Below are positions 9,905 to 62,673 of a stretch of 64,000 nt of DNA, piece after piece (the stretch's first letter is position 1; every line of letters begins with the position of its first letter). This stretch comes from Marsupella aquatica (taxonomy: Eukaryota > Plantae > Marchantiophyta): NCBI GenBank assembly GCA_973895155.1, contig OZ316891.1, positions 30,759,112 through 30,823,111 of the forward strand. The letters are read 5' to 3'. The notes under the pieces were generated by a model. The model saw nothing but the letters and a program-made list of their open reading frames with translations, was not told the origin of the DNA and made no database searches. The position numbers and the translations under genes are program-made.

Positions 9905-9964
9905 CTTGCTAAGTGCAACCTTTACCTTCCTCTAATCTCTTCACCCCGTCCCTAGCAAATCAAT

Positions 9965-31110: not shown

Positions 31111-33519
31111 CGAACGATGCACCATCTCAGTAAACAATAGTTCGTCTTCTTTGTTCTTTCACGCGTCAGACTGAATCCTGCTGTGTCCACAGTGATATCT
31201 TTCTTGTTGGAAACTTTATTTGATGATGCCCTTTCTAGTGAGCTAAAGGAGGACTTGAGCCAATGTAAGTCTGACTTGAGGGATGCAACTGGAAAGACAA
31301 TGAACAGTCATCTACCATGTTTTGGTTTACACATCCTTTCCAACTTTCGTGGACAATGTGGCATTAGAGAAAACGTTAACATTTGAACACTGTCCATCCC
31401 GATTTGTGAAAGTCCATCTGAGCATATCAGCAAAATTTAGGTCCACCAGGCAATTTTTTGGAATGGTATAACCCATCAATAGGTGAACATGAGAGAGTTT
31501 CTAAAGAGGAACAACCTTCATTACAAATAAATAGATGTTGCTCACAAAATCTTACTATTTGTGATTAAAAACCTACTTTTATGGCTCAGGTGTAGAGTGA
31601 AGCCTCTAGACTGTAACTCGGGGTTTATCACTTAACTTTGGGGGTGCATAAAAGTGGGGGTGCAAGGAATGGAGAAAAATCATAAATGAGCATGAATAAC
31701 AAGGAATCTTTTTCTTGCAAGTTTTTTTTTGTACTCACCTATATTTATGTTCAAAAGAACAATTAGTCAGGCTAGTCAAAGTAGGAGACTGACAGGCAAG
31801 GAGAACAGATGATGTTAGTCCTCTTCAAAGCATGAACCCTAAACCTTTCTGATTGATTGGCCCTAGTATGTAACAATTTCCTGTTGCCCAGATCACCTCT
31901 AGAGAGGAGGCACCACAATCCTACTTCTAAAGGCTCAAGATCTCTTAGTTTACAATCTGAAGCAACTACCTCTTTGGTTGGGTTGCATTGGCCATTAATA
32001 GTACATAACAGCCAGGCCACCCTTACAGTATGGGGTGTCAGAAATTGGATTCTGACTCACTACAAACATTCCATTAAAGTGGTTTTGGTTTGACTAAACA
32101 CTATAAAAGCAATGATCACTAGCAACTATGTCCTCGGTCCATTGGTAAATGCTTGCACGTCCTGTGTTTACACAGAAAATTTGATCTGTCCCATGCAGTT
32201 CCATAGACTGGATAAAACTCGCTCATTCAGCCATTTATTTGTTCCATGAATTTAGCTGGAGATGGCTGGATTGACTTGGGTGTAGTCTGTAACTTTTGTT
32301 GCAGTGACCAATTTGGACACCCCTAATAGATCATTTCTACATTGCTATATCGAGGGGGTCAATGCATCAATGCTTCCCAATCATCTAGTGCTACCTAGAG
32401 GAGACCTTTAATGCTCTTTAAAATTACTGTAAGCTAAACAATCTTGCTAAATGATCATGCACAATAAAAGCTTTATCTGTAACCATGAACTCATGTGAAC
32501 CACACAAATGAAGGCCAAGAACTTGAAGACAGTTACAAACAGTGGCAGGGAAGGGCATAATGGCGACATCCAGTTAGTTAGTGAGTTGGAAAGGTGAGGC
32601 ATTGTTGGGTTGGGTGGTTGGTTTGGCTTGTCATTCTGTCAATTTGCATCAGCTCTCAAGTACAAGATGTGGACTATCACTGGCTAATCTACACAATGGT
32701 CCTCCATGGAAGCTCTACCGATATCCAACTGAAATGTCCCGGCACAGTTAGGTTCGGGGACAGACTAAGGACAAATTCACTTTCAAATATGCTAATGTGG
32801 AACTGAGAGATATGGATTTGCTGTAAACAAAACTTTCACACACAAGCAAAGAATTGCCTCCAAACTATTTGCATCATTGACTCACTGAGAATCTCTTACA
32901 TTGATATTCACTGATCAAGAAAACACCACTACACCAGGAATCCCGTAATCAAAAGACATTACCCTTCACTAAAGAAGTACAGAGTATTTTCAATCTCTGC
33001 CACTAGCTTGGCAGTAACAATCAGACTGACTTTTTTAGCTTACGCAATAAAGGGCAAAGGCAAAGGATCAAAACATGAATTGAGAAGTTCTTGACCAATT
33101 TTTCCTGGCTATGCCTTGTATGAGGTATAATGACCTCTACAGAGAAGAGTATTCAAGATTGGACGAAGAAACAATCCAAATATCCTAATCATAGTTTGTC
33201 CAAAGTAGTTACCAGTTTATTATGAAATAACAGAATGAAAATTTTTCACATAGATTGAAGAGCATATATGATTCTTGATAGGGTTGTCATCGTTTTCCAA
33301 CCTAGAAAAAGGGGGCTTCCAGATAGCCAGTGTGAGAGATTTGATTTGGGGTGTTTATTCATCCCATCTTCAATACTCCTCCGTTCAGAGGTCATTTCAA
33401 GCTATCATACAGAGGAATAAAAACAATGAAAGACAAAGATGACCAACAATGCTCGGGACAAACTTGATGCCTCTTGTGCCAATTCAAAGAATCTAAACAT
33501 TTGGGCCAGCTAAGAACAA

Positions 33520-35337
33520 ATGAGGGGTTCAACTGGTGGGTGTCCAAAAGTTGCACAAAGACATCTGGAAGAAGACAATAGTGCAAGAGAGTTGCACAAA
33601 GCTGAAGCTGGAGAGAGGCCTGATAATTACAACAAGACTAACAAACAGAAAGAGGGCTCTATCGTTACAACTAGAAGGTTGGCCATTGTGACTACTCACA
33701 AATGGATAGTAATGCTCAAAGCTTGGTTTCACGGGAATTCAACTACTCAGTCTCAGGAGCCCAACCCTCCTCAAAGGTGGCTCTGCTTTGTGATTTGGCT
33801 TCTCCTGGTGCTTATGCTCTTACTAATTTCTCTAGGCTCTACTTGGTTGAGCCATTTGTGGAGGCCCAGTGTGAATGAAGGTGATGAGATAGCAAGCTTG
33901 CTGCAGAAGTATGGCTTTTTGACCAACGAAACCGAATTTGAGGACACCCTAGTCCCAGCATCATGGACTGAAAATCATAGCCCGTTGAGTCCCAACATCT
34001 TCAAATTGGAGAGAGCTGTTCAAATACTCCGTGGGATACTCCACTGCTCCTCTGATCTCAAGGGGCCAAACAAAAGCAATGGTACTCCAGATGCATCATC
34101 TGCCAACAAGAACAACGAACAAATAAACATTGCAGACTTCAAGTATGAATATTTTGAAGAGTGTCCGCCTTACTTCAATTGGATTCGAGAGGATCTAGCT
34201 CCTTGGAAGGAATCAGGAATCTCACGAAGTAGTCTTGAGCTGGGTAGGAGATATGCATCATTCAGAGTTATCATTTTGAAGGGCACATTGTATATTGATA
34301 TATTTAATGCATGCTTTCAAACTCGTCTGTTGTTCACAGTATGGGGACTGTTGCTCCTCTTGGAGAAGTATAACACCAAAATTCCAGATGTGGAGTTTAT
34401 GTTCAACTGCGGGGATAGCCCTCATGCCAAAATAGACAACAATGTGGCAGTTCCTCTCTTCAGCTACAGCAGTAGTCGTTCATATTATGATATCCCTTGG
34501 CCAGATTGGTCATTTTGGGGCTGGTCTGAAATATATATGGAATCATGGGATCAAGAATTTGACAAGATTACCAAGGGTTCCAAAAAGAAACCCTGGAGGG
34601 ACAGGGACAAGAAGGCATATTGGAGGGGCAACCCTTTTGTTGGACTAGGAAAGGCAGTCTTTCGGGAGCAACTTCTTTTCTGTCACAACACAACAAACAA
34701 TACCAAAGTTGACGTAATAATCCAACATTGGTATGAGGAGCTTTTGAGTAGAAAACAGAATTCCAAATTGGAAGATCAATGTACACATAGGTATATGGTG
34801 TATGTTGAAGGGGTTTCTTGGTCGGCAAGTTTGAAGTACATTATGGCATGTGGATCTACAACAATGGTGGTGTCACCAAATTTTTATGACTTTTTTCAGA
34901 GGGGACTTCAGCCAGGGGTTCACTATGTCCGAGTGCAGCCCAAAGACAGCTGTAGTTCCAAGCTCTGTCCCAAACTTAATGAAGTGGTTGACAACCAAGA
35001 ATTAAATCCATCAATGAGGGGAGAAGCAATTGGCAAGAATGGACAAGAATTTGTAAGAACACAGGTTAGCATGGACAAGGTATATGACTACATGTATCAT
35101 GCTCTGGTCAAGTATGCTGAGCTACAGGAGTTTCAGCCGATGATTTCCAGCTCTGCGCACTTGGTGACACAAGATTACATTCTTTGCCTAGCCCAACCCC
35201 TTCAAAAGTTGTTGCTGAAACAAGCAAGGAAGCACATGCCATCAAATGTATTACCTTGCAGTATGTCAATTGATAGAGCAAGATTCTTCAAAGATTATGG
35301 GTGGGAGGCTTACAAACCTGCCAACAACACCTGCTAA
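33520..35337 (+). CDS. Glycosyltransferase family 90 (CAP10 / Rumi-KDELC-like), type II membrane protein; true start may be the second Met
   Basis: 605-aa uninterrupted ORF with an N-terminal TM segment. Motifs CPPYFNWIREDLAPW, FQTRLLFTVWG, PDVEFMFNCGD, DIPWPDWSFWGW, AYWRGNP, YVEGVSWSASLKYIMAC and VYDYMYH. Confidence 0.93.
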   Translation: MRGSTGGCPKVAQRHLEEDNSARELHKAEAGERPDNYNKTNKQKEGSIVTTRRLAIVTTHKWIVMLKAWFHGNSTTQSQEPNPPQRWLCFVIWLLLVLMLLLISLGSTWLSHLWRPSVNEGDEIASLLQKYGFLTNETEFEDTLVPASWTENHSPLSPNIFKLERAVQILRGILHCSSDLKGPNKSNGTPDASSANKNNEQINIADFKYEYFEECPPYFNWIREDLAPWKESGISRSSLELGRRYASFRVIILKGTLYIDIFNACFQTRLLFTVWGLLLLLEKYNTKIPDVEFMFNCGDSPHAKIDNNVAVPLFSYSSSRSYYDIPWPDWSFWGWSEIYMESWDQEFDKITKGSKKKPWRDRDKKAYWRGNPFVGLGKAVFREQLLFCHNTTNNTKVDVIIQHWYEELLSRKQNSKLEDQCTHRYMVYVEGVSWSASLKYIMACGSTTMVVSPNFYDFFQRGLQPGVHYVRVQPKDSCSSKLCPKLNEVVDNQELNPSMRGEAIGKNGQEFVRTQVSMDKVYDYMYHALVKYAELQEFQPMISSSAHLVTQDYILCLAQPLQKLLLKQARKHMPSNVLPCSMSIDRARFFKDYGWEAYKPANNTC

Positions 35338-37511: not shown

Positions 37512-38861
37512 TGTGAAGACCTGGGCCACCAACCCTATTGGAAGGGCTGAAAATCCTAGGAGAATTGTTTTCGTTCAAATACATTTGGATAGGCTCAAAA
37601 CCCCAAGGTACTGTCCTTTGCTTTGGTTAAAATTACAACTGGAAGGAAGAGAAATCACAAGAGAAATTATAAGCTTAGATTAAAAACGTAATTTCTTTTG
37701 TCTGTTTAAGATAGTATATCATGTGAGAAAGATTATGGTTTAGCTTTAGTCTTAATAGGGTGGGCTTTGAGACTAGAGAGATCTCAACGAGAAAATCTTC
37801 AAAGTTGCTCTTCATCTTTCTTTTTATGGATGCCTGTATGGAGGTAATCTTTCTGAGGGGAGCAAAGTTGAGATTCAATTTTATCTGATGTGTGGGTCAA
37901 GTCTGACCAACGTGAATCCAAGGTGTTGCAGTGGTCTTGGTTTAGTTGGACAGTGGAAGTCAATCCGTGAGGCTTCAGATCCGATTGCCGGCTACTGTGA
38001 GGCTTCAGATCTGATTGTCGGCTACTGTGGGGCTTCTTCAGATCTGATTGTCGGCTATTGTTGGACGATGTTGGCAAGGCACAAGTGAAGCGACGGCTCT
38101 TTTCCTGAAGGAACGGAGCTGCCAATGCCCCGTGCGATGGTATCATCATTTCAGTGAAAGAAACGAGGGTCAAAGGTGTTGAATCAAGTTGCTGCCAGTT
38201 CTGTGGAAGGGCTGCATTTTTCATGAAGGAAATCGACAGTTTTCGAGAGCTTTTCGTGAAGGAAGTAGTCATTTTTGGGGTCAGGTGTGAGGTGCACGAG
38301 GTCACCCATCCCGAAAGTGCTTGCGCAAGGCGACGCGTGAGGTCACCCATCCCGAAAGTGCTCCCAACCGCGAGCGCGAAGTCACCCATCACGAGCGCAG
38401 GCAGGCGTGAGGTCGAGGTCACCCATCCCGGGGCTATTCCGGGCCGTGAGCGCGAGGGGAGGCACAAGGTCGAGCGCGAGGAGGTCACCCATCCCGGGGC
38501 TATTCCCAGCCGCAAGCACTTAACTGGCAAGTTCTCATCCCACCTTGTGTACACATAAGCTTTGACAACTTGTTGTTTAGATTCAAGCGCCAGGGGGCTT
38601 TATACACTTCCCAATTTGTTTAGAGGCCTATTCTAGGCCAAATCAGATGCTGTTTTAGGGTTTTTGATACTTCTGAGTCCATCTAGACTCACAGATTGAA
38701 CCAATTTTGCCTTGGTTCTCATCTACAACATTGGAGTGCCATTGTGAAGCCTATTATGAAGGCTCTTCCTTGAACCTTATGCACATTGTCATATTGATTT
38801 GCATTTGCTTTTGTGTGGAGAGTTGAATGGTATCCATTCTTGTTTCTGGATCCTCTTCACA
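37512..38861 (+). repeat. Putative 5' LTR of the methyltransferase-carrying retrotransposon
   Basis: Begins TGTGAAGA (37512) and ends TCTTCACA (38861), a perfect 8-bp TG..CA terminal inverted repeat. Internal subrepeats: GGCTTCAGATCTGATTGTCGGCTA-like x3 at ~37970-38057 and GTCACCCATC x5 at ~38320-38510. Lies directly upstream of gag. No matching second copy seen. Confidence 0.5.
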
Positions 38862-39065
38862 CATGTTTCCTGTTTATGCGCCATGTTAGTTTCATGTGGG
38901 CGCTTGATTCCATAGGAGTGATCCGGGTTTGCAACTAGACATTCTAGTGTGCTGTGTATTTCTCTCTTGGTGATGTTGGAGTGATGCCCAACACACCATG
39001 GTGAGTGCTTGTGGTGCTGACAGGGATAGATTGCCCTTAGGGTTAGCACATAGATTAGGTTAGGG

Positions 39066-41825
39066 TTGGTCACCACGGATTCTTCTGGTGCTGCTGGATT
39101 ACCCGATGGACGACGGACCGGTTTCACTCGGAGTGGGGCACAGTTTCGGCCAACGGCATTGGTAGCAGTTAGCAGTGCAGCTTCAGACAGTAATTCTGAT
39201 GAGGACTCAGTGACCAGTTCTCCTCATCATCAGGTGGTTGCACCTTTGTTGTGGGATATGGACGAGATGTACGGGGCTACAAAGGGCCCACGACGATACT
39301 CTGGTGCAGTTGGCACAATTGATCTGGATGACTTCATCCAGGAGTTTGATACGTGGTGCGATATGCAAACATTGCGTAACGTCACGTTGTTTACCCCTTT
39401 CATGGCATGGAAGGGATTATTCCAGCATTTGGAGGGGCCACCCATGGATGACTACCATGAGTTTCGGAAGGCTCATTTGGTTGAGATTGAGGCATGGAGG
39501 CAGCATTGGTCGCCTAATTACGTGTCCATCACCTATGGCACTAGTGCGGCTGCCCAACCCATTTCCACATCTACTGCTTCTTCTAGCAGCACTAGCCAGA
39601 GTGGCACACCATCCACCAGCAGCACTCCAGCAGCATCCACCACTACTCTTACCGGTGTGATTGTGACAGGAACTGGAGTTGCGCCAGCATTTAATCCTGT
39701 GGTGGAATTCTTTGAGGTACTGAAGCAGAACTATCAGGGTGTGAGAACTGATAAGTTGAAGGGTCTTCAAGAGTTCCAACGCAAGACTGGAGAGAGCCTA
39801 CGTGAGGCATACACACGTATGCGCAGATTGATCACTGTCACCAAGGGAGTGACATAGGCTCAGGCAGTCCAGTTTTGGTATGCAATTCTGGACAGAGAAT
39901 TGCGACGCAGAGTGAGAGATGTCACTCTGCTTAGGGATGCAGATCCCACATTAGTAGTTGTTTTCACCCTTTCTGAGCGCATTGAGCTCAATATGGTGAA
40001 TGAGAAGGTGGTGACTTTCGGATTTGCCAAGGAAGCACCAAAGGCTGCATCTACATCCACACCACAGCCTACTGCATAGAAGAGCCAGAGGGAGAAGCCT
40101 ACTGCACGAGAGTCTACCAGCCAGAGACCTGTGCCCTCTTATGCTGGACAGCAGTCAGGATGTTGGACCTGTGGTGGGGATCATGCACAGAGATATTGTC
40201 CAGATCATAGAGGATCAGGGGGAGCATCAGTGCTTGATCAGCGACAGTGTGATCATTGTGGAGCTCCTGGACACACCAAGGATAGGTGTTTCTCACTCCA
40301 CCCTGAGTTACGGAGAGGAGGATCCCGTACACATGATCAGGGAAGAGGAGGTAGAGGTGGTGGACGTGGTCGTGGCATGCCACATGCAGGGAGACAGGAA
40401 GGTGACGCTGCCCCTGCTATAACCATAGATCCAAAGGATGCTAAGATTGCTCAATTGGAGCAACAACTAGCTGCCATGGCTAGTTCCCAGGTGAGACCTA
40501 ATTCTGGTGATGGGGCATCTACATCCTATGGACCTTCCACATCCCATGGTCCTTCCACATCTTATGGAGCTGATGGAGACCTTGCCACCATGGGATTCAT
40601 GTGTGGCACTGCACATATTGATGCATCAGCAGCTTTGACACGTGGGGCAGCCAAAGCTCTTGAGCCTCGAGGAGCAGTAATGGAGTTAGATCCACAAAGG
40701 GGGGATGCACGTCGGCAGACAAAGCTTCCTCAGTCTTTTACATTGTCAGAGACAGTTCAGACTGCCTCTATGAACCCAGTTCGGACAAACCCTGATGTGG
40801 GTAAGTTGGCAGAATCAAGTAGTGATGCAGCAGGGATGACATGTACCTTGCTGGGGGCGGCTACTGCCATAATATGCACCCCATTATTTTTAGCGATAGA
40901 CATGCTGAACTTGGGATTTGGTCCTGCAGAAGTGTTCAGATTGGCAGCTACACTCTGTGAGGACACTCCAGTGGTTCTTTCTCATGCAAAAGCAACTTGC
41001 AGTGTTGATGCAGTGAAGACCATGCCACCTACTACTACTAGTGAGACATGGCATGCAGCAGCAGCGAGGTTGGTGGATTTACCAGCACGCCCTGCATTTG
41101 AGAGGACTAGGTTTAAACCTAGTGTTGTGTCATTGGATAATCGGAGTGGTATCTTCCGATTAGTTGGGCCTTCTGGAGCAGTATACCAGCCAGAGAGAGT
41201 GTTACTGGATACTGGTGCTCAGCCCTTGATGTTGGGGAAGTCTGCCATACGTGGATTGGGATTGCATCCAGAGGATTTGGAGGATTGTCCCTTTCCCATT
41301 CAGACTTCATTGGGGGGACCTACACCTACACAGCATATCACCAGGAGACCACTTGATTTGAGGATTCAGGAAGGTCATACCACAGATAGCTCACAGATAC
41401 AGGCGCGAGCTATTCTGACTAAGGCAGAGTCATATGATGTGTTGGTGGGATGTACAGTGCTCTACCCCATGGGATTTATTCTTGATTTTTGGGAGGAATC
41501 AGTGTCATATAGACCTGATTGGCAGTCAGGAGATGCTCGATTGAGCAAATTGCCAGTGAGATTTAGTGGACCTGTGGGAGGCCCTAAATCCACACCATTG
41601 TCTTTGGCAGCATTCAGTGGTGTAATTGCTAGACTTGATGATTTGATTGAGGGTAATGCGCATGCAGCCGATGTTCCACCATTGGAGGAGTCTCATGAGG
41701 AGCACATCATGCGAGGATTACCTGTTGGCAGTGTTGTGCCACCAGTGTGGGGCACTGCACAGGCCTTGCCACAGGCAGCAGCACGATTGGTACATGATGT
41801 ATGGCGTCATGCTTTTACACCATAG
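39066..41825 (+). pseudogene. Gag (capsid-like region, two zinc knuckles, RGG tract) and aspartic protease
   Basis: FQRKTGESLREAYTRMRRL (retrotransposon gag motif), CWTCGGDHAQRYC and CDHCGAPGHTKDRC knuckles, protease VLLDTGA (~41200) and YDVLVG. In-frame TAG at 39855, 40077 and 41823. Confidence 0.88.
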
Positions 41826-41858: not shown

Positions 41859-43049
41859 GTGACTCTTTCACCATTGGATACCACTCCTATTGCTTGGCAG
41901 TATCCACCGGAGGGTATTTGTTTGTTGGATCTTTTTGGTGGGATTAGCACTGGATTGGCTGCTGTTCTTCAGGCAGGAATTCCTGTGCGTCATTATTTGT
42001 ATGTGGAGACAGATGAGACAACACGGAGGGTCTCATTGCGACATGTGGCTATGTTGGTGGATAGATATCCACAGTTGCTGCCAGTGGATGCTGTTCGTGG
42101 TTATCAGCATGCACTACCTGCTGATATTTCATTGTTGGGGGCGGATCATCTACATCGTGTTGGCCCCATTGATTTGGTGATTGCTGGTTGGCCATGTCAG
42201 GGCCAATCTAGAGCTGGCGTTGGGCATGGACTTCATGATCCACGCTCTGCATTGTTTTGGGAGATGTTACGGGTGCTACGTCATCTCCAGCTACATCAGA
42301 CACAGTCTCCAGCATACATTTTGGAGAATGTGCCATTGTTAGGTGATGATCGTAGTCAGATTGTTGCCAGTGTTCACCAGGTGAGGTCTTGGATTGGACT
42401 TGCTGTGTTATTGGATGCTGCACGTGTGGGTTCTCATGCACATCGTCCACGCTTGTGGTGGACTAATTTGATCCCATGCGAGGTGCTGAAGCGTGCATTT
42501 GACAACATTCCACGCTCACCAGCCTTAGTGGTGGATGATATTTTGGATCCAGGGCGTCGTGCGCAGGGTGTGACCCAACCTGATAGACCTCCATTGGCAA
42601 TGGTCAATGCAGTTGGGTGCCCACGTTGTGCATTACCCACTCTTATCAGCCACTCTGCTTCATATGCATTCAGAGCAGGTGGCCCTGGACTTGTATGGGA
42701 CACAGCTCTCCAGCAGTTAGTGGAGCCTACTGCTGATGAGAGAGAGCGTGCTATGGGATTTTTGACTGGCACCACTTCAGTTGCCTCTGTATCAGAGGGT
42801 TTGCGGCGCCAGGTTCTTGGTCAAGCAATGGATTTGAATTGTTTGACTTGGATTATCAGCTTGGGAGTAGCTGAACAGTTGCGGATGCGCTCTGCCAGAA
42901 TTACTGATTGTCCCTTGGTGAGCTTGCGGTCCACTGAGACAGTATTGACCACAACTGGGGGCGAGCAAACAGTCCATGGACCTATGACAGGATTGGCAGC
43001 TGGACAGATTGTTGAGCAGGAAGAGACTGCTCAATCTACTGCTAAATAG
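41859..43049 (+). CDS. C5-cytosine DNA methyltransferase catalytic domain, DNMT3-like, embedded in the retrotransposon polyprotein frame
   Basis: Motifs in canonical order: I LLDLFGGISTGL, II YLYVE, III ADI, IV DLVIAGWPCQGQS (catalytic PC), V R..LFWE, VI YILENV, VIII AHRPRLWWTNL, IX ERERAMGF, X RRQVLGQAMD. No internal stops. Confidence 0.92.
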   Translation: MTLSPLDTTPIAWQYPPEGICLLDLFGGISTGLAAVLQAGIPVRHYLYVETDETTRRVSLRHVAMLVDRYPQLLPVDAVRGYQHALPADISLLGADHLHRVGPIDLVIAGWPCQGQSRAGVGHGLHDPRSALFWEMLRVLRHLQLHQTQSPAYILENVPLLGDDRSQIVASVHQVRSWIGLAVLLDAARVGSHAHRPRLWWTNLIPCEVLKRAFDNIPRSPALVVDDILDPGRRAQGVTQPDRPPLAMVNAVGCPRCALPTLISHSASYAFRAGGPGLVWDTALQQLVEPTADERERAMGFLTGTTSVASVSEGLRRQVLGQAMDLNCLTWIISLGVAEQLRMRSARITDCPLVSLRSTETVLTTTGGEQTVHGPMTGLAAGQIVEQEETAQSTAK

Positions 43050-43154
43050 TAATCATCGGCTATCTCTTCTACCCTACAAAGAGATATTAGGGATTTGGTG
43101 GAGAGTTAGGAACCACAGCTTGGCCCTAAGTTAACAGGGGAGGAGAGACGTCGC

Positions 43155-44540
43155 ATGCATCGATTCCTGAAGAGTTATTGGAATTGTTTTGCATTCAGCA
43201 TGAAGGATTTGGGGACATTGAAGGGCCCTGGTATTCAGATTGAATTGGCTAGTGATGCGCCAATCTTTCGTAGACCATACCGTTATAGTGACATGGAGAG
43301 AGCTCTGATTCAAAGCAGAACTCAAGATTTGTTGGAGGCTGGATTGGTGGAGATTTCATATGGGGAGTATGCATCTGCCACAGTGATGCCAGCCAAGAAG
43401 GATGTGCATGGCAATTACACAGATAGGCGCATGTGTGGTGATTACAGACCTATTAATCGCCAGACAAAATCTGATCGATATGCCATGCCCACACCTGAGG
43501 AGATCTTTGATGCTGTGGGGCATGCAAAGGTTTTCAGTTCATTGGATCTGAGGGCAGGATACCATCAGCTTCCAATTAGGCATGCTGACAGGTCCAAGAC
43601 AGCATTCTGGGGGATTGATTCTTATGGCAAAGATCGTTTGTATGGTTATTCTTACCATTTGGGTTGAAGAATGCACCAGCTGAGTTCTAGAGAGTCATGG
43701 ATCGAATCCTTGCAGGTTTGGATTTTGTCAGATGTTATATTGATGAGATTTTGGTCTATTCTTCTACTGTGGAAGAACATCAGCAGCACTTGCAGACTGT
43801 GTTGGAGAGATTGAGAGCACATGGGTTGAAGCTCCATCCTAGCAAGTGTAAGTTCTTCCAAGACCAGATTGAGTATTTGGGCCACACCATATACCCAGGG
43901 GGATTGGGTGTACAGCAGACTAAAGTGGAGGCCATTACACAGATTCCTTGTCCTACTGATGTGAGTAGAGTTCGTGCATTCTTGGGATTGGCGAGCTACT
44001 ACAGGAGGTATGTTAAAGGATTTAGCCAGCTTGCTAAACCTTTGACCATACTCACTAAGTTGGATCAGGAATGGATTTGGGGTGATGACTAGGAGCATGC
44101 CTTTCAGGAGTTGAAGCAAAGGTTGGCATCATCCCCTATTTTGAGAAGACCCATTTCAGGCAGACCATTTCAGCTACACACTGATTGGAGTGGAGTAGGA
44201 CTTGGAGCAGTGCTGACTCAGAAGGATGATGAGGGGAATGAGTTTGTTGTGGCTTATGCCAGTAGATCAAACAATTCAGCAGAGGCTAAGTATAGCTCTT
44301 ATGAGGGAGAGTGTTTGGCAGCAGTGTGGGCTGTTGCACACTTTCGTTGCTACTTGTTTGGTAACCCCTTCACCTTGATCACTGATCATCAGCCTCTTAA
44401 GTGGTTAATGGAGTCTGACAAGCTTACAGGGAAGCTTGCACGATGGGCATTGTTGTTACAGGAGTATGATTTCCAGGTGGTGCATAGGCCTGGAAAAGTG
44501 AACTTGGATGCAGATGGATTAAGCCGCAATCCATGTACCA
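43155..44540 (+). pseudogene. Reverse transcriptase and RNase H
   Basis: RMCGDYRPIN, FSSLDLRAGYHQ, KTAF, LPFGLKNAPAEF*R (after the frameshift), CYIDEILV (YIDD changed to YIDE), LHTDWSGVGLGAVL and YSSYEGECLA. Confidence 0.93.
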
Positions 44541-44899
44541 GTCAGCAGGATGAGACTGGAGCCAGATGGCATGATGAGTCAGATAGGGAGATGGTGCCAG
44601 GATGGCATGCATCTGCCTTTCTTTGTTGGGTGCCAGCATACAGTGGATCTGTGGACTCTACCTCATTGGATGGAGTGGATGATGAGTCTTCAGATGTGGA
44701 TGTTGGTGAAGTAACTTCTGGACAGCAAGATATTCACAATGATGTGAGAGTGTTGGAATATCTGCGCAATAGTTCTATTGTTGGCAGTGTTGATGCCAAG
44801 GAACGTGACAGGGTTCTACAGAGAGCCAAGAGGTTTCGATGGGAGGGAAACCATCTTTTGAGAGTACTGCATGATGGTAGGATGTTGGTGGTACCAAAA

Positions 44900-46171
44900 C
44901 CATCACAACGAGTACATTTGGTGCGACATGCGCACGAGGAGTTGGGTCACTTTGGTGTGAAGCGCACTTACAGCTTGCTGCAGACGCAGTATTGGTGGCG
45001 TGGTATGCACACTCATGTCCAGCAGTTGATAGCTAAGTGTGTGGTATGTGACAGAGTGAGAGCATCATTTAATGCTCCCACTCCCCAGTTGCACCCATTA
45101 CCGATCATGGGTTTGGGATATCGTTGGAGTTTGGATTTTGCTGGTCCATTACCTCTTACCCAACGTCATAATCGGTATGTTTTGGTCATGGTGGAGCACT
45201 TCTCCAAGTGGATTGAGCTAGTGGCGTTGCCAGATAAAGCCAGTGGAGGAGTTGCTGCTACATTTTTGGATCGTGTACTTAGTCATTTTGGAGCACCAGC
45301 TGAGGTGTTGACTGATCAGGGAACTGAGTTCCGTGGAGAGTTTGAGAGTTTGTGTGAATAAGCTCTGATTGATCATCGCACTACCTCTCGTGATCATCCT
45401 GAGGCAGATGGATTAGCTGAGAGAGTTGTGCAAACTGTGAAGAGAGGATTGCGTAAGTATGGCTTGCAGGTTGGTCATCTGGGAGATTGGGATCTCCAGC
45501 TACCTTGGTTAGCTATGGGCTACCGTTTCAGTCGGCAAGCATCACTTGCATCCTTCTCACCCTACTTTTTGCTCTATGGTAGAGAGCCAGATTTGCCAGC
45601 AGCTATTCGTCGTCATGCTGCACCAGTTGTGAACTTGGATGATCCTGATGTTTGGGTCAAGGTGTGTTCAGAGAGAGCACGGGTATTTCAGAGAGTGATG
45701 CCCATGGCTTTTGACAACCTTGCCATTGCCCAACATTGTGATACTTTGAGGTATGCCACTATTCGTGGAGGAGGTTACCGTGCAAGCATTCGACGATTTC
45801 ATCCTGGTGATTATGTTTATTTGCAGCAGACAGCACCCACGACACTTGATGTGACCGCAGGCCGGACAATCTTACGTGTGCGTGAAGTGTTGCCTTCTGG
45901 TGTCCTGATGTTGGAGGGACGCGATGGTATGGTTTGGAAGGATCATGTGCGCAACTGTGCACCATGTCACCTTCCCAACATTGATGGTACAGTAGATCCA
46001 AGCTTGGCACATGTTCGTGCTGGCTTGAAATGTATGTTGTGTGGATCTGCTCAGGGAGCAGCTACTATGTTGATTTGTGATAAGTGTTCTAGAGGATGGC
46101 ACATGTCATGTTTGACACCACCATTGCAGGTGATTCCTAGTGGATCATGGTTGTGTCCTCAGTGTCGGTGA
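44900..46171 (+). pseudogene. Integrase (HHCC + DDE) with C-terminal PHD finger
   Basis: HAHEELGHFG...CVVC; WSLDFAGP, VLTDQGTEF and DGLAERVV (past TAA 45359). PHD C4HC3: CMLC...ICDKC...WHMSC...WLCPQC at ~46031-46168. Confidence 0.93.
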
Positions 46172-46346
46172 AGCCGACTAGTTATCATTTGTGTTCTCTT
46201 GGCAGATATGGATTGCAGGTAGGTGATCGATGGGGCTCACTTGCACCCGGCCTCCTGATCTTCACACCTAAAAAGGTGTATATCAACCTTGTAGAACTCA
46301 TGGCTAGCTAGAGTTAGGGGACCTTACTCCCAGCTAGGGGGGTGAT

Positions 46347-46951
46347 TGTGGGTTTTGGACATGTGTGGACATGAGTTCCACTTGTATTCCATTCTCTTGT
46401 ATTTGTGATGTGGCAGTGTGACTATGTCTGGATGTATGTGACAAGCGATGTATGTTGTGTAGCGATATGTATGCGCACGACAGCTGTCACACCATTCTGA
46501 GTAGTGTAGTAGTATATCGTGCTATTAGAGTATGTACGTTTGGTATGAGTGCTATTGGAGCCGATAAGGTTCTGTCAGGTTTGTGTGAGAGGGTACTTCT
46601 CACTTGTGAGGCATTGAAATGTCATCTTTCAATGTTGAGCCTTGGAGAGAGAGGAGCTTGAGTGTGGCTATGGTGGCTGTGAGCTCCGCTTGTGTAACGT
46701 GGATTCCTTGAGTAGTGCAAGGTGCGTTGGCTTGACATACGTGTGTGATCGGATCGGTGCGGGATCGATGGGGTATTGTTGACCGAGATCGTTGTGCCGA
46801 TTGTATGGAGATTATTGTGGGTTTTGGACATGTGTGGACATGAGTTCCACTTGTATTCCATTCTCTTGTATTTGTGATGTGGCAGTGTGACTATGTCTGG
46901 ATGTATGTGACAAGCGATGTATGTTGTGTAGCGATATGTATGCGCACGACA
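46347..46951. repeat. LTR-like unit (TG...CA) with identical 136-bp direct repeats at both ends (46347-46482 and 46816-46951)
   Basis: TGTGGGTTTTGGACATGTG...ATGCGCACGACA occurs twice. Polypurine tracts flank it on both sides in opposite orientation. Confidence 0.85.
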
Positions 46952-48560
46952 GACTCCTCCCCCCTATTGCAAGAACATGAAAACTTAAAGATGACAAAAA
47001 CTAACACAACTAAGAGAGATTTGAAAGAAACAAATACATTGAGACAAATGGCAGACGGGACAGGAGATGGGATAATAGACGAGCAAAACAAAAAAAGTCA
47101 AATGTGTAGAATTAATCACAAATTTGCAATGCTAGCTATTGGTTTTATATGCTCAAATGAGAAGCCAAAATTTAAGAGATATTGATAGAACTCTAGAAAG
47201 CAACAAATCAATGACAACAGACGCTTACTCCAAAATACTACAATGGATTCTTGTATTAATTTTGGGTGACATCTATAAGAGGATATGCACCAGTGTTGTG
47301 AGGTTCATACTTCAGAAGTGCACCATCTTCTGCACAAATCCTTGTCCCAAAGTGAGGTTTGGCAAAGTCCTATGCACACAGGAGGCTTGCCATTTGCAAA
47401 ATTTAAGGTCTCGCTCTTCCTGACCTAAGTAAAAACAGGGAGACTCGACACTTCTGTTCATCCCCTAAATGAAAACAGGTAGGCAGGTCGCGTCGAAGAC
47501 TTGGCATAATTTGGAAATAAATGAGGTCTCTCCCTTCATCACCTAAAAGAAAACTTGGGACTGTCTTAGAAGAATTGAGGTCTCTCACTTCATCACCTAA
47601 GTGAAAACGGGGAAACTTGACACTCAGGAAGATTTGAGGTCTCTCTCTTCATCACCTAAATGAAAAATGGGTCATCCAAAGGTGATCTTCGGTGGATAGT
47701 CTTTGTTTTAAGGTAAAAAGAAAATGGGTAGGTGGGTGGCATCTAAGAGTGGGACCCAAAATAGGGAGATTTGACCTTTTTTGGGGTTGGTGCCCACAAC
47801 ATACAGATGGGTGCCTCTGACATTGGAAGGTAAAAACCCTGGTCAATACGCACTGTAGAAACTTGAAACTTAGATATCTGTCTGATAGTTAAAAAAATTG
47901 AGGAATGCAAAGTGGTAAACTTTGACACTGGTAAAACTTAAAAGTAGGTAGAAACTTGACACTTAGAAAAACATGAGAAATGGAAACTGGTCAAGCACTT
48001 ACAAGTAGATAGATGCTTGCCGAAAAAAGGGGCTCCAAATCGGGAGACACAACCCCTCAGGGAAGAGACTGGACAAAGGGGAGAAGACAAGGGCAAAACC
48101 CTGGAAAGGCCAGAGAGCCAAAACACTGAAGATTCCCAGCGAGAGTAGTCTATGGCAGTAAACTAAAACCCAGAACCCTATTGAGTGGCAAACCGAAAAA
48201 CCTGGTAAAGCTCCAGAATGACACAGGAGGGTGAAAGACTATTTTGACTAGAGACCCCAAAAGTGGAGGGTGGGAGAGGAATTTGACCGAGAGGCACAAA
48301 ATCCAGAATAACCTACATAGGAGGGTGAGAGAATCAATTGACTCGAGTCACTAAATCCAACAACCCGGTCCGTACACAAAAGAGTAGTGAGTGCCCGAGC
48401 ACTTTATGATGAAAAGTACATTACTTAGCTCAACCCAGGCCCTAAAAAGAATACTAAATTTTGGATAAGTCAAAATAGGCACAGATTAGTATGAACTTGC
48501 TATACTATAAATGAAAATGACATTACTTTACCTCAGCCCGGGCCCCTATAAATAATGAAT
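46952..48560 (-). mobile_element. Probable non-coding 3' internal remnant of a second, minus-strand LTR element
   Basis: Minus-strand PPT TAGGGGGGAGGAG immediately precedes TGTCGTG at 46951. Repeated TCATCACCTAA blocks at ~47400-47670. No coding domain seen. Confidence 0.4.
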
Positions 48561-48669
48561 GCCTGGGACATTACTTTGAGAGAGATACTTGATGGACTCC
48601 CAAAATGCAAAGTGTTTTCTTGATGGACCCATATGTGGTCCAGACGTTGATAGATCTCAAATCAATGTA

Positions 48670-49030
48670 CCAAAAAGCGTCTCATGGGGTCTATCAACTG
48701 AGACATTTCAATTTAGGGGGACATCAAGTATATCTCTCCATTGCTTTATCTCTCAGCAACCAAAAAGCTCATGGGTCTCATGGGGTCTATCAAGTAAGAC
48801 ATTTCAAGTTAGGGGTCCATCAAGTATATATCTCCATTGCTTTATCTCTCAGCAACCAAAAGGCTCATGGGTCTCATGCGGTCTATCAAGTAAGACATTT
48901 CAATTTAGGGGTCCATCAAGTATATCTCTCCATTGCTTTATCTCTCAGCAACCAAAAAGCTCATGGGTCTCATGGGGTCTATCAAGTAAGACATTTCAAT
49001 TTAGGGGTCCATGAAGTATATCTTTCCATT
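48670..49030. repeat. Tandem repeat, 96-bp unit, ~3.7 copies; related dispersed copy at ~61425-61610
   Basis: CTCATG(G/C)GGTCTATCAA at 48681, 48777, 48873 and 48969. Confidence 0.92.
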
Positions 49031-49069
49031 ATTTTTAGTTATCTCTCAGAAAAAAATTGACCAAATGAG

Positions 49070-49562
49070 AATAAACTTTTTGACACTTGGAAATTTGACA
49101 CTAGAGAGATGAGGAATGGTACTTTAGCTGTCTCTCAGCAAAACTGACGGAACGAAAATAAACTTTTTGACACTTGGAAATTTGACACTAGAGAGATGAG
49201 GGAATGGTACTTTAGCTGTCTCTCAGCAAAACTGACCGAACGAAAATAAACTTGTTGACACTTGGAAATTTGACACTAGAGATATGGGGAATGGTACTTC
49301 GGCTGTCTCTCAGCAAAATAGACCGAATGAAAATGAACTTTTTGACACTTGGAAATTATTTTGACACTAGAGAGATGAGGAATGGTACTTTAGCTGTCTC
49401 TCAGCAAAACTGACCGAACTAAAATAAACTTTTTGACACTTGGAAATTTGACACTAGAGAGATGAGGAATAGTACTTTAGCTGTCTCTCAGCAAAACTGA
49501 CCGAACGAAAATAAACTTTTTGACACTTGGAAATTTGACACTAGAGAGATGAGGGAATGGTA
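49070..49562. repeat. Tandem repeat, ~88-bp unit, ~6 copies, directly upstream of mevalonate kinase
   Basis: TGACACTTGGAAATT at ~49081, 49168, 49256, 49343, 49434 and 49521. Confidence 0.92.
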
Positions 49563-49861: not shown

Positions 49862-52800
49862 ATGGAGGTCGTCGAGGCCCGAGCTCCTGGCAAGGTGATA
49901 ATCAGCGGAGAGCATTCGGTGGTGCATGGAACTCCTGCCGTCGCGGCCGCTCTCGACCGTTACACGATCGTGCATATCGAAAGGCCGACTACAGTTGTTG
50001 GTACTTTCCCTTCCCCTTCACAGAGGAATCAATTGATCGCGTCTGCAAATTTCTTTTCCAGTCTAGATCAGAACGAGAGTGAGAATCATTGCGCTTGTGC
50101 GCTTTTGAATCGTGGCCTGTTTTCCGAGAGAACGGTTGGATAATTTTATGGCCATCCTTATTTTTGATGTCTTCAATCTGTAGACAGAAAGATCAGTTCT
50201 CCACCTATCGTTTCGCGGGCCCGATTTAATAGAAATGATTTCAAAAGCGCCAGATGAAGATTGGTACAGAGTATCGGGCCATGCGTCAATTGGCAGGATG
50301 TGATTTTAAGAGAGAAAAAGAGAGGAGGGTAAGGAGGGGGGGGGGAGTAAAAACGGAGAGATCGCCATGAAAGACAAAACATACTGCTATACACTAGAGG
50401 CGTCTCACATGGTCAAATCAGCATTCTCAAGTACCCATGCTTTCTCTGCAGGCGATAGTGGACTTCTATCCGTCGACCTTCCGGAGATCAACTTGCGGCT
50501 GAGCTGGCCCATGCAATACATCAAGCAATCTCTAAATTTCCCATTGATAGAAACAGACGCTCTGGAGACAGAGCAAATAGAGAGTATCAAGGCTGTTCTC
50601 GAAGATTTCGTCAAGAGAGAGATTTCGTCGAATGCAGACAAAGGCGCAAATGCGGGAGTGGCGGCTTTCCTCTTCCTCTATGTTTCTATCGTAGGGTGAG
50701 AACACTCTCCGCAGATTTCCATTTTACTTATGAATGACCTGCATAAATGTTTGCCAAAACAGGAGGACCCGAGTATCTGGGCTGTGATCATACTTTTGTC
50801 ACTCCGTATTTAAGGTGGTTCGCTGGCGTACATGTGCACAAAAACTCTTGAAATGAGCGTGTGTTTATAGTAGGCTTGCAGTAGGAAACTACCCTTTCCC
50901 AGGTCTTTCCGTAGATTTCATGACTGTTTCTGTCAACAATTGGGAGAGAATCCAGAACTGATTCCAGCACAGGGTGCACTTTATGGCCAGTAATACAGTA
51001 GTTCTTCGTTCTCTCTAAGCTCACCATTGGAAGCCTGTGGTCTTCTTTCCCCTAGACAATATAGAATGCCATAGCTTTTCAAACAACTTCACACTTTGGA
51101 GCAGCATGGATCTTGAGATTCTTAGAAGATGGAATCATACCCACGCCGAAATTTCTTTGATAGTTAATTGTACGAATAAATAACGTTTTAGAACACTCTC
51201 GGATCCGAATTCCTTTGTAGGGTAAGTTCCTCGTCATCAAGGAAGTGGAACTTTTTCGACGAAAGTAATTGTGGTCTTCTGAAAGTGGGGGGCGCTGATA
51301 TGGCTAATAGTTTCACAATTCAGGTTGCAGCCTCTGGAAGTGATTATCACATCTGAGCTCCCAGTGGGGTCAGGCCTCGGTTCCTCTGCAGCATTCTGTG
51401 TAGCTGCTGCTGGTGCGTTGCTTACATTGGCCGGTAAGGTGGAGCTTCAAGCCGATGGATTGAAACGCAAATGGATGGACTTAGAAGATACCGGACGGAA
51501 TCTGGTTAACACCTGGGCCTTTGAAGCTGAGAAGATCATTCATGGAAGGCCTTCAGGTGTTGACAATACTGTGAGTTGTTATGGTGAGTGTGAGCATCTT
51601 CACGTTCTCCTGGTTTTCATCAAACCATAGAATTATAGACCTTTATAACGAAACTGGAAATTGGCTGTCTGAAATAAAGACAATTTCTACAATGGACTGT
51701 CATGGAAACAAGTAACTAAAGCGTTATCAATTAACTGCTGACCATATAAATCAACGACAAACATGGATTGTCCAAGTTGCAGCCAATAACGGTAACAAAG
51801 TTGAGTGAGTCTGTTACGGGTCTCATTGCACCAGAGCTTTGGGAATCATTGTTATTTCATCTGAAGGGAGTCGTTGTTGACATTTCCACAGGTCATGTTG
51901 TGCGGTTCCAAAAAGGCCATTTGACACGTTTGCAAAACCCCATGCAACTCCGGATGTTGATAACAAATACGAATGTGAGCCGGAACACAAAAGCACTAGT
52001 TGCTGGTGTTGGAGAACGTGCAATTAGACATCCCACAGCCATGGCTGCAGTGTTCCAAGCTGTTGAAGCGATTTCCGAAGAGATTGTTTCCATTCTTGAG
52101 TCCCCGACTCCAGCTAAAAGTAAACAACCAGAGCAATATACTGCCGGGGCTGGACCAATTGCCCCAGTCCATGTCAATGGGATTGCTACAAATGGAAGCG
52201 AAGTTCATGGGAGCAAAGGTGCTGAACCAATTGCCCCAGTCCATGTCAATGGGATTGCTACAAATGGAAGCGAAGTTCATGGGAGCAAAGGTGCTGAACC
52301 AATTGCCCAAGTCCAAGTTAACGGGATTGTTACAAATGGAAGCGAAGTTCATGGGAGCAAAGGTCAAGATCCCATTCCTAGTAGTTTACAGGTATTGTCA
52401 CGGCTGGAGGAGCTGATGGTCATGAACCAGGGTCTTCTGCAATGTATGGGTGTCAGCCATCCCTCCATCGACGAAATATGTCAAACTACCTCGAGATTCC
52501 GTCTATGTTCCAAGTTGACTGGAGCAGGAGGCGGTGGCTGTGTACTCACGTTATTGCCCAGTGGTACTAACTCTAACTACCCTGTTATTGCTTTTGGCTT
52601 CTCTTTCTTTTTGGTTTTCGTACGTGAAAATCGGAACTGTTTTATTTGCACGAGTTTTCCAATCGAAGCCAGCATACACCAGTGTTGCATTAGAAGATAG
52701 CATTAAACACGTCTTTTCGATGGGGAAGTAGAAAAACAACAGCTTTAACTGGAATGAGGTTGAATTGAGGCCCTTTGCAAGACAAATGGATCAGGAAAGT

Positions 52801-59908: not shown

Positions 59909-62673
59909 CTAGAAGGGATGAAAATCTGTACTGTATGTATGTGCATAACTCTTTAGTACTTTTCTTTGCATGTGTATTTATGGCTTTTCATGTTATGTCA
60001 GTCAGTCTTAATTAACAGATATTAATTTATTGTCATATACTTTACATGTATTTATTTATTTATCATAAAATAAATTAAATGAATTACATATCACTACAAG
60101 ACAAAAAAAGAGTCATGTTCCTGGATTAACATGCCATATATATGCACAACTCATAGTTACTTTTGTACTTTGCTGGTAAGTGCTTTCCTTTGCATGTGCT
60201 CTACTCTCATTCACTCTTAACAGATATTATTTTCTTGGAATCAATGTATTGTATTTCTACTCTCCTCTTCTATCCTAAATAAACTAGACAATTTACATAT
60301 CACTATAAGACCAAAAAAAAATGAAGCATCTTCCAGGAAGAACATGCTATAATCCCTAACGGTGGACGTGAGTGCATGCTTAACCCACTCGTTGATGTTA
60401 AAGAGGAACTCACCCTAGACCTAAATAGAAATGCTGGTAGACTCATCTGGTTTCAGCCATTTTTTGCTTAACTCTAGTGTTTGATTGCCATAAAGTTGTT
60501 ACCTGTCAATCAAACGGAAACACTCTTCTGAATACCCCTGCATATTACACGTATAGTCTAAATATAAAAAAATTTGGTTACTGAGAAATTACAGCCTAAG
60601 GTTCTCTCTATGCATTTCGATGTACAAACACTGATGTATCAGTGTTTGCAGACTTAAAAAAATTGAGATAAAGTATGTATGGCACTTTGAAATGTAAAAA
60701 TCAAGATTTAGCAAACCTGACTCTCTCTAAGGTAGATGATTGAAGGGCTTAACAGATCAGCTGGAAGATTTTTGGAAAATTAGACCTACCTGTTTGTAAA
60801 GTTTCTGGAGTCTTTAACTTGGTGCAGCTTTTTCCAAGCAATTGTCTATGAGTCCCCAGTTACATTATAATTCAGGATTGAAGTCTTTTGTTCATGACCT
60901 CCATAATTAGAATTTCATAATGCGCGCATTAGAAAAGTTCTCCAAGTTTCACAATTTACCCTAAACTTTGTCTTGGGACCAAAATTTTTGATGGATGTAT
61001 TTCTCAGGAATCAATGGGCATGATGATGCGAAGCATTATGTGATTTACTTTGCGCCACTAAGAGACTGTATTCTCCCTACATTCCTGTGTGAGGCAGTGC
61101 AAGCTTCAGTCTGGAGCAAAGCCCAGAAGAGAATACAAAATTTGTTTATTTTTGCTTTTCCATGCCCCCCCCCACCCCCTGGATCATGACTTCACAAGTC
61201 ATACAGTTGTCACCCTTTTGCCCTCCCTGCCTCCACGCACATCCTCCATCTTGTCCTTGCTAATAGTGCAACAAACAGACATTGAACTGCTATAGTACTG
61301 ATTTACATGCAGATGTTTTTCCAGAAATCACAAAACCTTGACTACCAAAGTCTCCTATACCTTACAAATAGGCAAGTCAAGCCTGCCACAGAAGTTTTGT
61401 GCCCTTCAATCCCAGGTCTATGCTTGATGGACCCCAAAATAGAAAGTGTTACTTGAAAGAACCTCTAAGTGATCCAGAGTCACTCTTGATAGACCTTACA
61501 TCAATGTACCCAAAATCCTCAGGGTCCCATCAAGTAACAATTTTGATTTTGGGGATCTATCAAGCAAATAGGGAGTCTCAAAGCTTCCAATTTGATGGAC
61601 CTTAACTTAGTACTTAAGGTTATGGACTGCCAAATTCATAATACTCTGGACAGAAATGAAGGATGAAAGATTGGTCATATGCTATGACCATTAGTCGGTG
61701 TAGAGGCCAGTAAAAAAGACAAAAGGAACATATTTTACATATCTTGTGTAAAAACTTTGAAAATTTGTTTATGACCATCATCCACAACTTTGAAAACTTT
61801 GAAACTCCTTTGGTTTTCTGTCCACTAAGGGTTTACTTCTTTGTTTGCTTCTTCGGGGATGTTTTGTTGTTGTGGGGGACTCCTCGGTTTGTTGGGCCTT
61901 TTGGCATTCCGGTCCTTCCTTTTCCCCCCTTTTATTGTGGGGTTCATTTGCCTATCTCCCGATTTGGAGTTTTTGTCTGTTTGGCAGTGTGAGTCTGTGA
62001 TATATGGTATGAGGGCAGAATTGAAAGCACGATGGAGAATTCAAAGCGTGATGGGGGTTTCCTTCCCGCAACTAATAAGACTCCGTATTTCCCCTAAATT
62101 CTACGTGTGGGGCAGTACAAGTTTCCGGTCACCACTTCACGAGTCATAAAGCAGTTACCCCAGCCCGGGAAAATGATTTCCCTCCTTCCCGGTACGGTAG
62201 GGCACTGCCTTTCATCGCTGACCGAGACCCACCGCGAAGATCTGGGACGATGTGGACGGCGGAGATTCTCGGATGACGACGATCGGGGGGTTTGAAAGGG
62301 ACCAAAAGGGCCCCACCGAAACTGCCCCCTACTGTAGTAGTAGTCTAGTACTGCAGTAGTGGTCGCGAAGTGACCGTTGGGTTCGTCGTCCTTCGTTTTC
62401 CGTGGTTCTCCTCTGGAAAGCTTTGGAGAATTGAATTCGAGGAATGGCACGAGTGTTCTGACGTTGCCTCTCGTCTCCCCTGGAAGAATGGTTTCCGTTG
62501 AGCGGAGGGAGGGAATGTCGTGAATGATGAGCGTTCCAGTGCTGTGGGTTGATTCACAGCGGGGGAAATCGGAGCAATTTGGTCTGCTGAGAGAGAGAGG
62601 GGGGGAAATGCGAGATCAGGAAGAATTGTAGGAGAAAGAATTGTAGAAGAATTGCACAGATTGGGAGGCAAGG

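Follow-up and report, generated by a model that had tools for sequence, protein, structure and literature searches.

A PHD finger and a DNMT3-like methyltransferase in a Ty3/Gypsy-type element of Marsupella aquatica

Introduction

A stretch of 64,000 nucleotides from Marsupella aquatica (contig OZ316891.1), which is called the window in the following, contains a retroelement that carries a DNA methyltransferase and ends in a PHD finger. This combination raises the question of what the two domains do and whether they act together. The role of retrotransposon-carried methyltransferases is treated as an open question (PMC5890265). An earlier note on this DNA proposed that the finger reads unmethylated H3K4 and that the element has reassembled the reader-writer logic of DNMT3, i.e. 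it would integrate into such chromatin and methylate it there.

Results

Anatomy of the element and its surroundings

The plus strand from about 38 kb to position 46,952 represents a Ty3/Gypsy-type element with Gag, protease (PR), C5 methyltransferase (MTase), reverse transcriptase (RT), RNase H (RH), integrase (IN) and PHD finger, in the order Gag-PR-MTase, a TAG codon, and RT-RH-IN-PHD; all features of the element described below lie on this strand. The probable 5' non-coding part (37950..39053) has an approximate boundary and the 5' terminal repeat A1 is missing; the summed contig depth, which gives rough element bounds only and not copy number, climbs from about 100 to thousands in the bin 37837-38173. 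The Gag-like region (39054..40300) includes two CCHC knuckles (40161, 40248) and two private stops (39855, 40077). The aspartic protease (41061..41516) has its DTG at 41202ff, with a Pfam match (E=0.0045) below the cut-off. RT and RNase H (43050..44494) form the start of ORF2, which is interrupted by private stops at 43107, 43688 and 44090 and by a frameshift near 43620-43650. The DDE integrase (44795..45988) consists of an HHCC zinc domain (44927-45049), the core with the catalytic residues D 45128ff, D 45308ff and E 45410ff, and a C-terminal domain; an in-frame stop at 45359, again private to the window copy, splits the core. The stops at 40077, 43107 and 44090 were checked in four runs and are absent from the other copies. 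With A1 missing and with Gag, RT and integrase core broken by private stops and the frameshift, the window copy is dead, and the locus as such is an ordinary one of this kind.

The nearest named relatives come from liverworts and Sphagnum, and no relative was found among viral contigs. Near-identical sequence occurs in the runs X1-X10, which cover at least three organisms (share of words 0.27-0.73) and may reflect kinship of the hosts or a transfer from one to another. Depletion of CpG/CHG was considered as a sign of self-methylation and discarded: the CpG o/e ratio is 0.34-0.35 in the element and 0.53-0.59 in its flanks, but depletion is uninformative here because a host gene has a value of 0.23, below that of the element.

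Two host-like ORFs surround the element, a glycosyltransferase family 90 ORF (33514-35337) approximately 2.6 kb upstream and a GHMP-kinase-like ORF (51750-52700) approximately 4.8 kb downstream. The window also contains inverted repeat arms (6240-8456 and 14873-16825) of about 2 kb with 96-99% identity and 6.4 kb between them, in which no Pfam-matched ORF was seen; they possibly represent an element with long terminal inverted repeats or a recent inverted duplication. A direct duplication (9528-13064 and 27487-31118; about 3.6 kb, 93-94% identity, 18 kb apart) includes a 123-nt tandem unit, and further duplicated pieces are found at 13123-13642 and 25789-26297, the latter overlapped by a PEMT/ICMT-like ORF (25840-27153). 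Tandem arrays at 48669-49562 and 62094-63832 are built of units of about 90 nt and come with a 279-nt exact duplication, which sits in overlapping long ORFs without credible Pfam match.

The PHD finger at the integrase C-terminus

The finger with its natural stop (46031..46171) forms the C-terminus of the integrase in ORF2, beyond the core and the beta-rich C-terminal domain. Its ligands (46031-46165) are spaced C-x2-C-x11-C-x2-C-x4-H-x2-C-x17-C-x2-C, and the last Cys is followed by a single Arg and the stop codon (46169-46171). The MLICD motif that the earlier note had pointed out is found in this translation, as is the core Trp of the PHD fold. The Pfam profile PHD (PF00628) matches with E=2.4e-11 and 43.9 bits (cut-off 24) and is covered at all 47 positions. 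A search of all six frames found the complete ligand pattern at a single place in the window and never in 200 shuffled six-frame sets. In the AlphaFold model the finger stands out as a block with pLDDT 77-87, the remainder of that model being weak (mean pLDDT 62), and the modelled finger superposes on the PHDs of DPF3, ATXR5 and BHC80 with 1.5-2.1 Å over 46-47 residues. Chromoviruses carry a chromodomain at the integrase C-terminus, and the earlier claim that an intact C4HC3 PHD finger occupies this place is borne out by ligands, Pfam and fold alike; the finger is genuine and lies exactly where it was reported. A chromodomain was not detected by Pfam, either in the ORFs of the window or in 15 relatives. 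The domain itself is intact, but the finger cannot be expressed from the broken window copy.

Just before the PHD linker lies a short His/Cys motif, H-x3-C-x2-CH (45944..45970), whose CH pair co-varies with the PHD: it is present in 77 of the 98 PHD-bearing proteins versus two of the 19 without detected PHD, and both of these break off within the finger. The anatomy of an ADD domain, i.e. a GATA-like finger, a PHD and a C-terminal helix joined to the methyltransferase (PMC6316889), was not found. The window finger is a single PHD that ends at the stop, 3.2 kb and one family-wide stop codon away from the MTase, and there is no ADD among the best 60 of 92 PDB matches to it.

The predicted H3-tail site

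Among the same best 60 of 92 matches, the nearest solved PHDs by sequence are those of DPF3/DPF2, ATXR5, CHD4, KDM5A/B (PHD1), PHF21A, UHRF1, AIRE and BAZ2, which we take, partly from the titles of the PDB entries, to be binders of unmodified H3. In the PHD of ATXR5, the amine of H3 A1 contacts Pro60/Gly62, R2 contacts Asp41/Asp44, and K4 is bound by main-chain atoms of Val23, Gly31 and Leu37; furthermore, the exchange L39W abolishes H3 binding (PMC5499861). Aligned to ATXR5, the window finger keeps Pro60, Gly62 and Asp41, visible as the A1 pocket P-x-G-x-W and the Asp after the third Cys, and it has the hydrophobic residues Leu, Met and Ile at positions 23, 37 and 39. The position of Asp44, the second R2-binding acid, is taken by Ser, and this Asp is the one sequence feature of an ATXR5-type site that is missing.

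These residues are conserved far beyond the window. From 297 fetched proteins, 196 match the PHD profile, and 149 of them fit the full pattern and enter the residue counts, which leave out 47 truncated, decayed or differently spaced fingers. Among the 149 complete fingers, Asp41 is found in 142, Met37 in 141, Pro60 in 132 and Gly62 in 118, and Asp44 in just ten. In readers of H3K4me3 (ING/BPTF type), the second residue ahead of the His ligand is a cage Trp. This position is Gly in the window finger and in 136 of the 149 fingers and Trp in a single one; by this feature the finger does not group with H3K4me3 readers of this type, and the absence of an obvious aromatic cage noticed earlier holds for the family. 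Fingers of the BHC80/AIRE type use an acidic residue before the first Cys for K4; in the window's subfamily there is none. ATXR5 likewise lacks this acid, yet it selects K4me0 via main-chain contacts (PMC5499861). Richer in acids before and within loop 1 (mean 3.4 versus 1.0-1.8) are the fingers of the group in which the MTase is placed between RNase H and integrase (RH-MT-IN, see below).

Judged from the aligned residues, the H3 groove is conserved and the K4me3 cage absent across the family. Because most of the ATXR5-type H3 site is kept and the cage Trp is lacking, the finger likely binds unmethylated H3K4, and its earlier assignment to the class of PHDs that bind unmodified H3 tails agrees with the nearest solved structures and with the conserved site residues.

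The methyltransferase

The presence of a DNA-methyl writer in the element, also claimed before, is supported by fold and catalytic motifs of a C5 cytosine methyltransferase with open reading frame (41910..42854). Its motifs are FxG (41925), PCQ (42186), ENV (42324), RxR (42441) and the motif X region (42819). The enzyme is unpermuted and DNMT3-type, a placement made by motifs and fold. In the PDB its sequence matches DNMT3A/B/C best, and DRM and bacterial enzymes rank behind these; the predicted structure (pLDDT 82) matches DNMT3A with E=2e-18 and a TM score (by target) of 0.75-0.8. An alignment of 29 MTase sequences shows no exchange at the catalytic Cys, at the Glu of ENV or at the second Arg of RxR. 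Neither ADD nor PWWP is attached to the domain. Activity of a Gypsy-DNMT3 enzyme has been assayed in a single published test, done in yeast, in which the Gypsy MTase of Klebsormidium nitens showed no activity, a result that the authors call inconclusive (PMC5890265). Members of the group P0170-P0240, whose MTase lies between RNase H and integrase, retain the catalytic Cys of this enzyme, frequently as WEC instead of WPC, and some also carry a G-patch.

A conserved stop codon between methyltransferase and reverse transcriptase

ORF1 is closed by an in-frame TAG (43047..43055), which in the window copy stands without the CAR-YYA context. In the intact locus L005, a single TAG between MTase and RT (5083-5091) separates two ORFs that share a frame and measure 1369 and 1047 codons; ORF2 contains no Met before residue 117, which lies within RT. 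Among 34 loci that span this junction, 21 show a TAG or TAA with CAR-YY behind it at the corresponding site, and five of these 21 have the full CAR-YYA; ten further loci, all of one family, have no stop between MTase and RT, and three are decayed or shifted. The TAG is kept across families (also in L060, L073 and L076) despite unrelated linker sequences around it, and the contigs of all four runs show it without an alternative letter, with all depth carrying the CAR-YYA context. The TAG at 43047 is a conserved feature of the family and not a sign of decay. The stop is absent between MTase and RT of 11 database proteins. In the largest stop-bearing family the codon is followed by CAA-CCC, an imperfect context, and then by ATG, because of which reinitiation is possible there. 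RNA structure 3' of the stop gave no consistent signal in six sequences compared with mononucleotide shuffles (z -2.3 to +0.3).

In TMV-type plant viruses, CAR-YYA by itself directs readthrough, at about 6-10% in stable plants (PMC2194720, PMC2754532). The stop of Tca2, however, gave no readthrough in a yeast reporter and shows that such stops can be bypassed in another way. Given context and conservation, the TAG of the window family is probably leaky, with readthrough placing protease and MTase on the Gag side. Since the stop splits Gag-PR-MTase from RT-RH-IN-PHD, the MTase would be produced in the same amount as Gag, and the PHD would arise solely by readthrough; if this proceeds as in TMV-type viruses, Gag-PR-MTase is predicted to exceed RT-RH-IN-PHD approximately tenfold or more.

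Co-occurrence and separate losses of the two domains

The earlier note had suggested a check of PHD/MTase co-occurrence across related families. We searched with the RNase H-integrase part, which is free of both domains, and analyzed the best 80 of 559 confirmed loci; these are not independent, as 75 fall into five clusters at 80% identity (about five families). Within these best 80, the PHD is present in 51 of 52 loci long enough to test and the MTase in 34 of 39; 22 loci could be tested for both domains and 20 of these have them together, so the expected co-occurrence was found. The five MTase-negative loci were considered as MTase-free families and rejected, all being truncated or internally deleted, as is likewise the sole PHD-negative locus.

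At the protein level, relatives were detected in bryophytes, charophytes and chlorophytes (Marchantia, Calypogeia, Sphagnum, Closterium, Klebsormidium nitens, Tetrabaena, Chromochloris). Among 117 long proteins with complete integrase tail, 98 have the PHD. The remaining 19 comprise 14 with a short unrelated tail, four that break off and one with a divergent finger. Eleven of the 14 short-tail proteins are named Closterium, 13 fall into one 99% clade, and three of these PHD-less proteins have the MTase in the same ORF. Conversely, P0186 and P0202 have the order PR-RT-RH-IN-PHD with no MTase from the protease to the end. On this sequence evidence, PHD and MTase have each been lost without the other.

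The MTase occupies two positions. It is found before RT in 11 single-ORF proteins and in the two-ORF families, and between RNase H and integrase in 43 proteins, 40 of them with PHD and including those of Tetrabaena and Chromochloris. This RH-MT-IN group makes up one side of a branch with 98-100% SH-aLRT support in the MTase and RH/IN trees, which are quick trees with SH-aLRT support only and no reliable root; on that side of the RH/IN tree, five of the 48 rows lack an MTase at that place. The 129 in-group rows, K. nitens included, are set apart from two outgroup elements, with a poorly resolved backbone and no reference lineages in the tree. In Marchantia, some pieces of the family have entered the annotation as host genes of PHD or DNA methyltransferase type (for example P0010, P0013, P0242 and P0244).

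Split repeats and integration

The 3' end of the element consists of split direct repeats B1-A2-B2 (46345..46952), identified by repeat comparison in the window and in relatives and preceded by a polypurine tract (46333..46344); four relatives have an equivalent G-rich tract before B1. B1 spans 46345-46483, A2 about 46486-46813, starting with TGTCA, and B2 46814-46952, ending with GACA. B1 and B2 show 100% identity, but their length of 139 nt is too short for dating the window copy. A second copy of repeat A (A1) was not found within the window. The full layout A1...B1-A2-B2 with TG...CA ends is present in the relatives L026, L043, L046 and L073, and these four complete relatives are flanked by 4-bp target-site duplications, exact in three and with a one-base difference in the fourth. 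DIRS/Ngaro elements use a tyrosine recombinase and make no target-site duplication. An identity as DIRS/Ngaro was ruled out by the DDE integrase and the 4-bp duplications in relatives, and the combination of these two features with split repeats implies an unusual route of reverse transcription. At the B1/A2 joint (46477-46492 in the window, and in relatives) the sequence reads GACA-NN-TGTC, i.e. right end, two bases, left end, which resembles a circle junction; the left terminus holds only A. Furthermore, the internally deleted L064:9393-12370 has A1 fused directly to the RNase H-integrase-PHD part.

Discussion

How PHD finger and methyltransferase may act

Taking these data together, we consider it the probable reading, held with considerable reserve, that the PHD tethers integration to H3K4-unmethylated chromatin and that the MTase is a separate, more abundant product. 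Ribosomes would mostly halt at the TAG and release Gag-PR-MTase, and a minority would read through and add RT-RH-IN-PHD; the protease would then free the domains inside the particle. The MTase may methylate the cDNA or the freshly inserted copy, independently of the PHD; such an action was proposed for cDNA-forming elements by de Mendoza et al. (PMC5890265). Integrase with its PHD would dock on H3 A1/R2/K4me0, insert the element at a distance from active promoters and produce a 4-bp duplication, in the manner in which chromodomains tether chromoviruses. The conserved H3-site residues, the conserved stop with its context and the independent domain losses argue for this reading; the missing Asp44, one of two R2-binding acids, argues against it, as do the junctions and database proteins without a stop, the imperfect context in the largest stop-bearing family and the negative yeast assay. 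A PHD-bearing Gypsy element of Chlamydomonas, whether or not it is akin to the window family, shows intergenic insertion 2.6 times above chance, with selection not excluded (PMC9940879).

The coupling suggested by the earlier note, in which the PHD would bring the MTase to H3K4me0 chromatin and perhaps switch it on, so that the landing site becomes methylated, appears unlikely to us. PHD and MTase could be coupled on one chain or together in the pre-integration complex, and such coupled function would also predict the very high, nearly universal co-occurrence of both domains. The DNMT3 fold of the MTase speaks for it as well, as does the readthrough product, a single precursor with MTase and PHD. 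Nevertheless, the finger lacks the ADD anatomy, the conserved stop and the whole of RT-RH separate MTase and PHD in the window's family, each domain has apparently been lost without the other, and Pol domains are normally parted by protease processing (PMC2194720). Because the finger is a plain C4HC3 PHD and not an ADD, the losses are independent and a conserved TAG stands in between, the data lend little support to a reassembled DNMT3 logic, and we do not uphold this part of the earlier note. Coupling is also favoured by the RH-MT-IN clade, where 40 proteins on one side of the well-supported branch have the order RH-MT-IN-PHD and the fingers are more acidic around loop 1. There the MTase adjoins the integrase, hence MTase and PHD could share one chain, and coupling is possible in this clade, as it is through co-delivery in the particle.

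In a wider form of this idea, a lineage spread across green plants would carry its own histone reader and de novo methyltransferase, land on H3K4-unmethylated chromatin and write its own silencing marks, as a convergent rebuild of DNMT3. In bryophyte families the leaky stop would raise the MTase to the abundance of Gag and bring it into the particle; the MTase of the algal RH-MT-IN clade would ride on integrase-PHD. We regard this picture as doubtful.

Rather improbable is a finger that recognizes the free N-terminus of H3 (A1/R2) whatever the state of K4, or a non-histone partner, and thereby acts as a general tether. According to the titles of PDB entries, the UHRF1 PHD was solved with an H3K4me3 peptide and with the non-histone proteins PAF15 and Stella, and the lack of an acid before the first Cys in the window's subfamily would fit such relaxed reading. 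However, ATXR5 without that acid is still K4me0-selective (PMC5499861), and Met37 is nearly invariant (141/149), as expected of a constrained K4 pocket. Finally, a purely structural role of the finger, as a zinc module in the integrase tail that does not act on histones, would agree with the co-variation of the upstream His/Cys motif and with the whole clade that transposes without PHD, but it is highly improbable in view of H3-groove surface residues that are conserved beyond the zinc ligands from bryophytes to chlorophytes.

Returning to the favoured tethering by the PHD, recognition of H3K4me0 would add to the chromodomain a second means of keeping LTR elements off active genes, and the stop between MTase and RT would set the dose of the MTase. 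The family offers natural contrasts for such questions: members that have or lack the PHD, that have or lack the MTase, that place the MTase before RT or next to the integrase, and that possess the stop or do without it. On the practical side, misannotated pieces of the family in Marchantia gene sets can inflate the counts of chromatin genes.

Comparison with known systems

Gypsy-DNMT3 elements, PHDs in retrotransposons and LTR elements with reader plus methyltransferase (EpiLTRs) are already known. A PHD and a DNMT3 joined in one Gypsy element were not found in the literature that we searched, nor were the spread over bryophytes and chlorophytes, the two MTase positions and the stop that precedes RT; this search did not extend to subscription papers, theses, Repbase or figures. 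The closest system is KnitGypsy-Dnmt3 of K. nitens, a name used together with streptophyte 'Gypsy-DNMT3' in bioRxiv 10.64898/2026.05.21.726589 for elements from de Mendoza 2018 (PMC5890265). Like the window element, it combines Gypsy domains with a DNMT3-type MTase in the polyprotein and has DIRS-like split repeats (PMC5890265). In KnitGypsy-Dnmt3 the MTase lies inside the Pol ORF, whereas the window family has, in the same frame, a stop between MTase and RT, and another clade places the MTase between RNase H and integrase. Moreover, KnitGypsy-Dnmt3 was described for K. nitens only and the relatives of the window element span bryophytes, charophytes and chlorophytes. Text and supplements of PMC5890265, figures aside, do not mention a PHD (0 matches). 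Our matches include two K. nitens proteins, P0156 (PR-MT-RT-RH-IN) and P0190 (RT-RH-IN-PHD), and since the Pol protein P0190 has a PHD, Fig. 4c of that paper may show one.

PHD fingers have been described as accessory domains of retrotransposons (PMC6673714, PMC9940879, PMC8557442, bioRxiv 2021.11.30.470311); the main texts of PMC2864245 and PMC6317226 do not contain the term and hence do not confirm a PHD clade in Selaginella. Gypsy-7a_cRei and REM1 of Chlamydomonas resemble the window element in having a PHD as accessory domain of the LTR polyprotein, and the PHD of such elements was proposed to steer insertion off genes (PMC9940879). Gypsy-7a_cRei differs by its LTRs, its length of 15.4 kb and the absence of an MTase from its listed domains (PMC9940879). 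EpiLTRs of Cymbomonas and Euglena are LTR elements that likewise carry a histone reader together with DNA methyltransferases (bioRxiv 10.64898/2026.05.21.726589); unlike the window element, they use a chromodomain, a DNMT4-related MTase and an adenine MTase.

The stop has its counterpart in TMV-type viruses, which have an in-frame UAG with CAR-YYA ahead of the polymerase region, and SIRE1, Tca2 and MuLV also possess in-frame stops (PMC2194720, PMC2754532); in the window family it comes behind protease and MTase, rather than behind gag or in front of env. The PHD of ATXR5 (PDB 5VAB) is 47% identical to the window finger (2.1 Å over 47 residues) and shares its H3 contact positions except Asp44, but it serves a SET domain in cis, unlike the window finger. 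DNMT3A has the same catalytic fold as the MTase; its ADD is joined directly to the methyltransferase and inhibits it, and nothing comparable flanks the MTase of the window. Chromoviruses, finally, also carry a chromatin reader on the integrase, with a role in targeting (PMC6317226, PMC6673714). The window element differs from them by a PHD predicted to read an unmethylated tail, by its MTase and by its split repeats.
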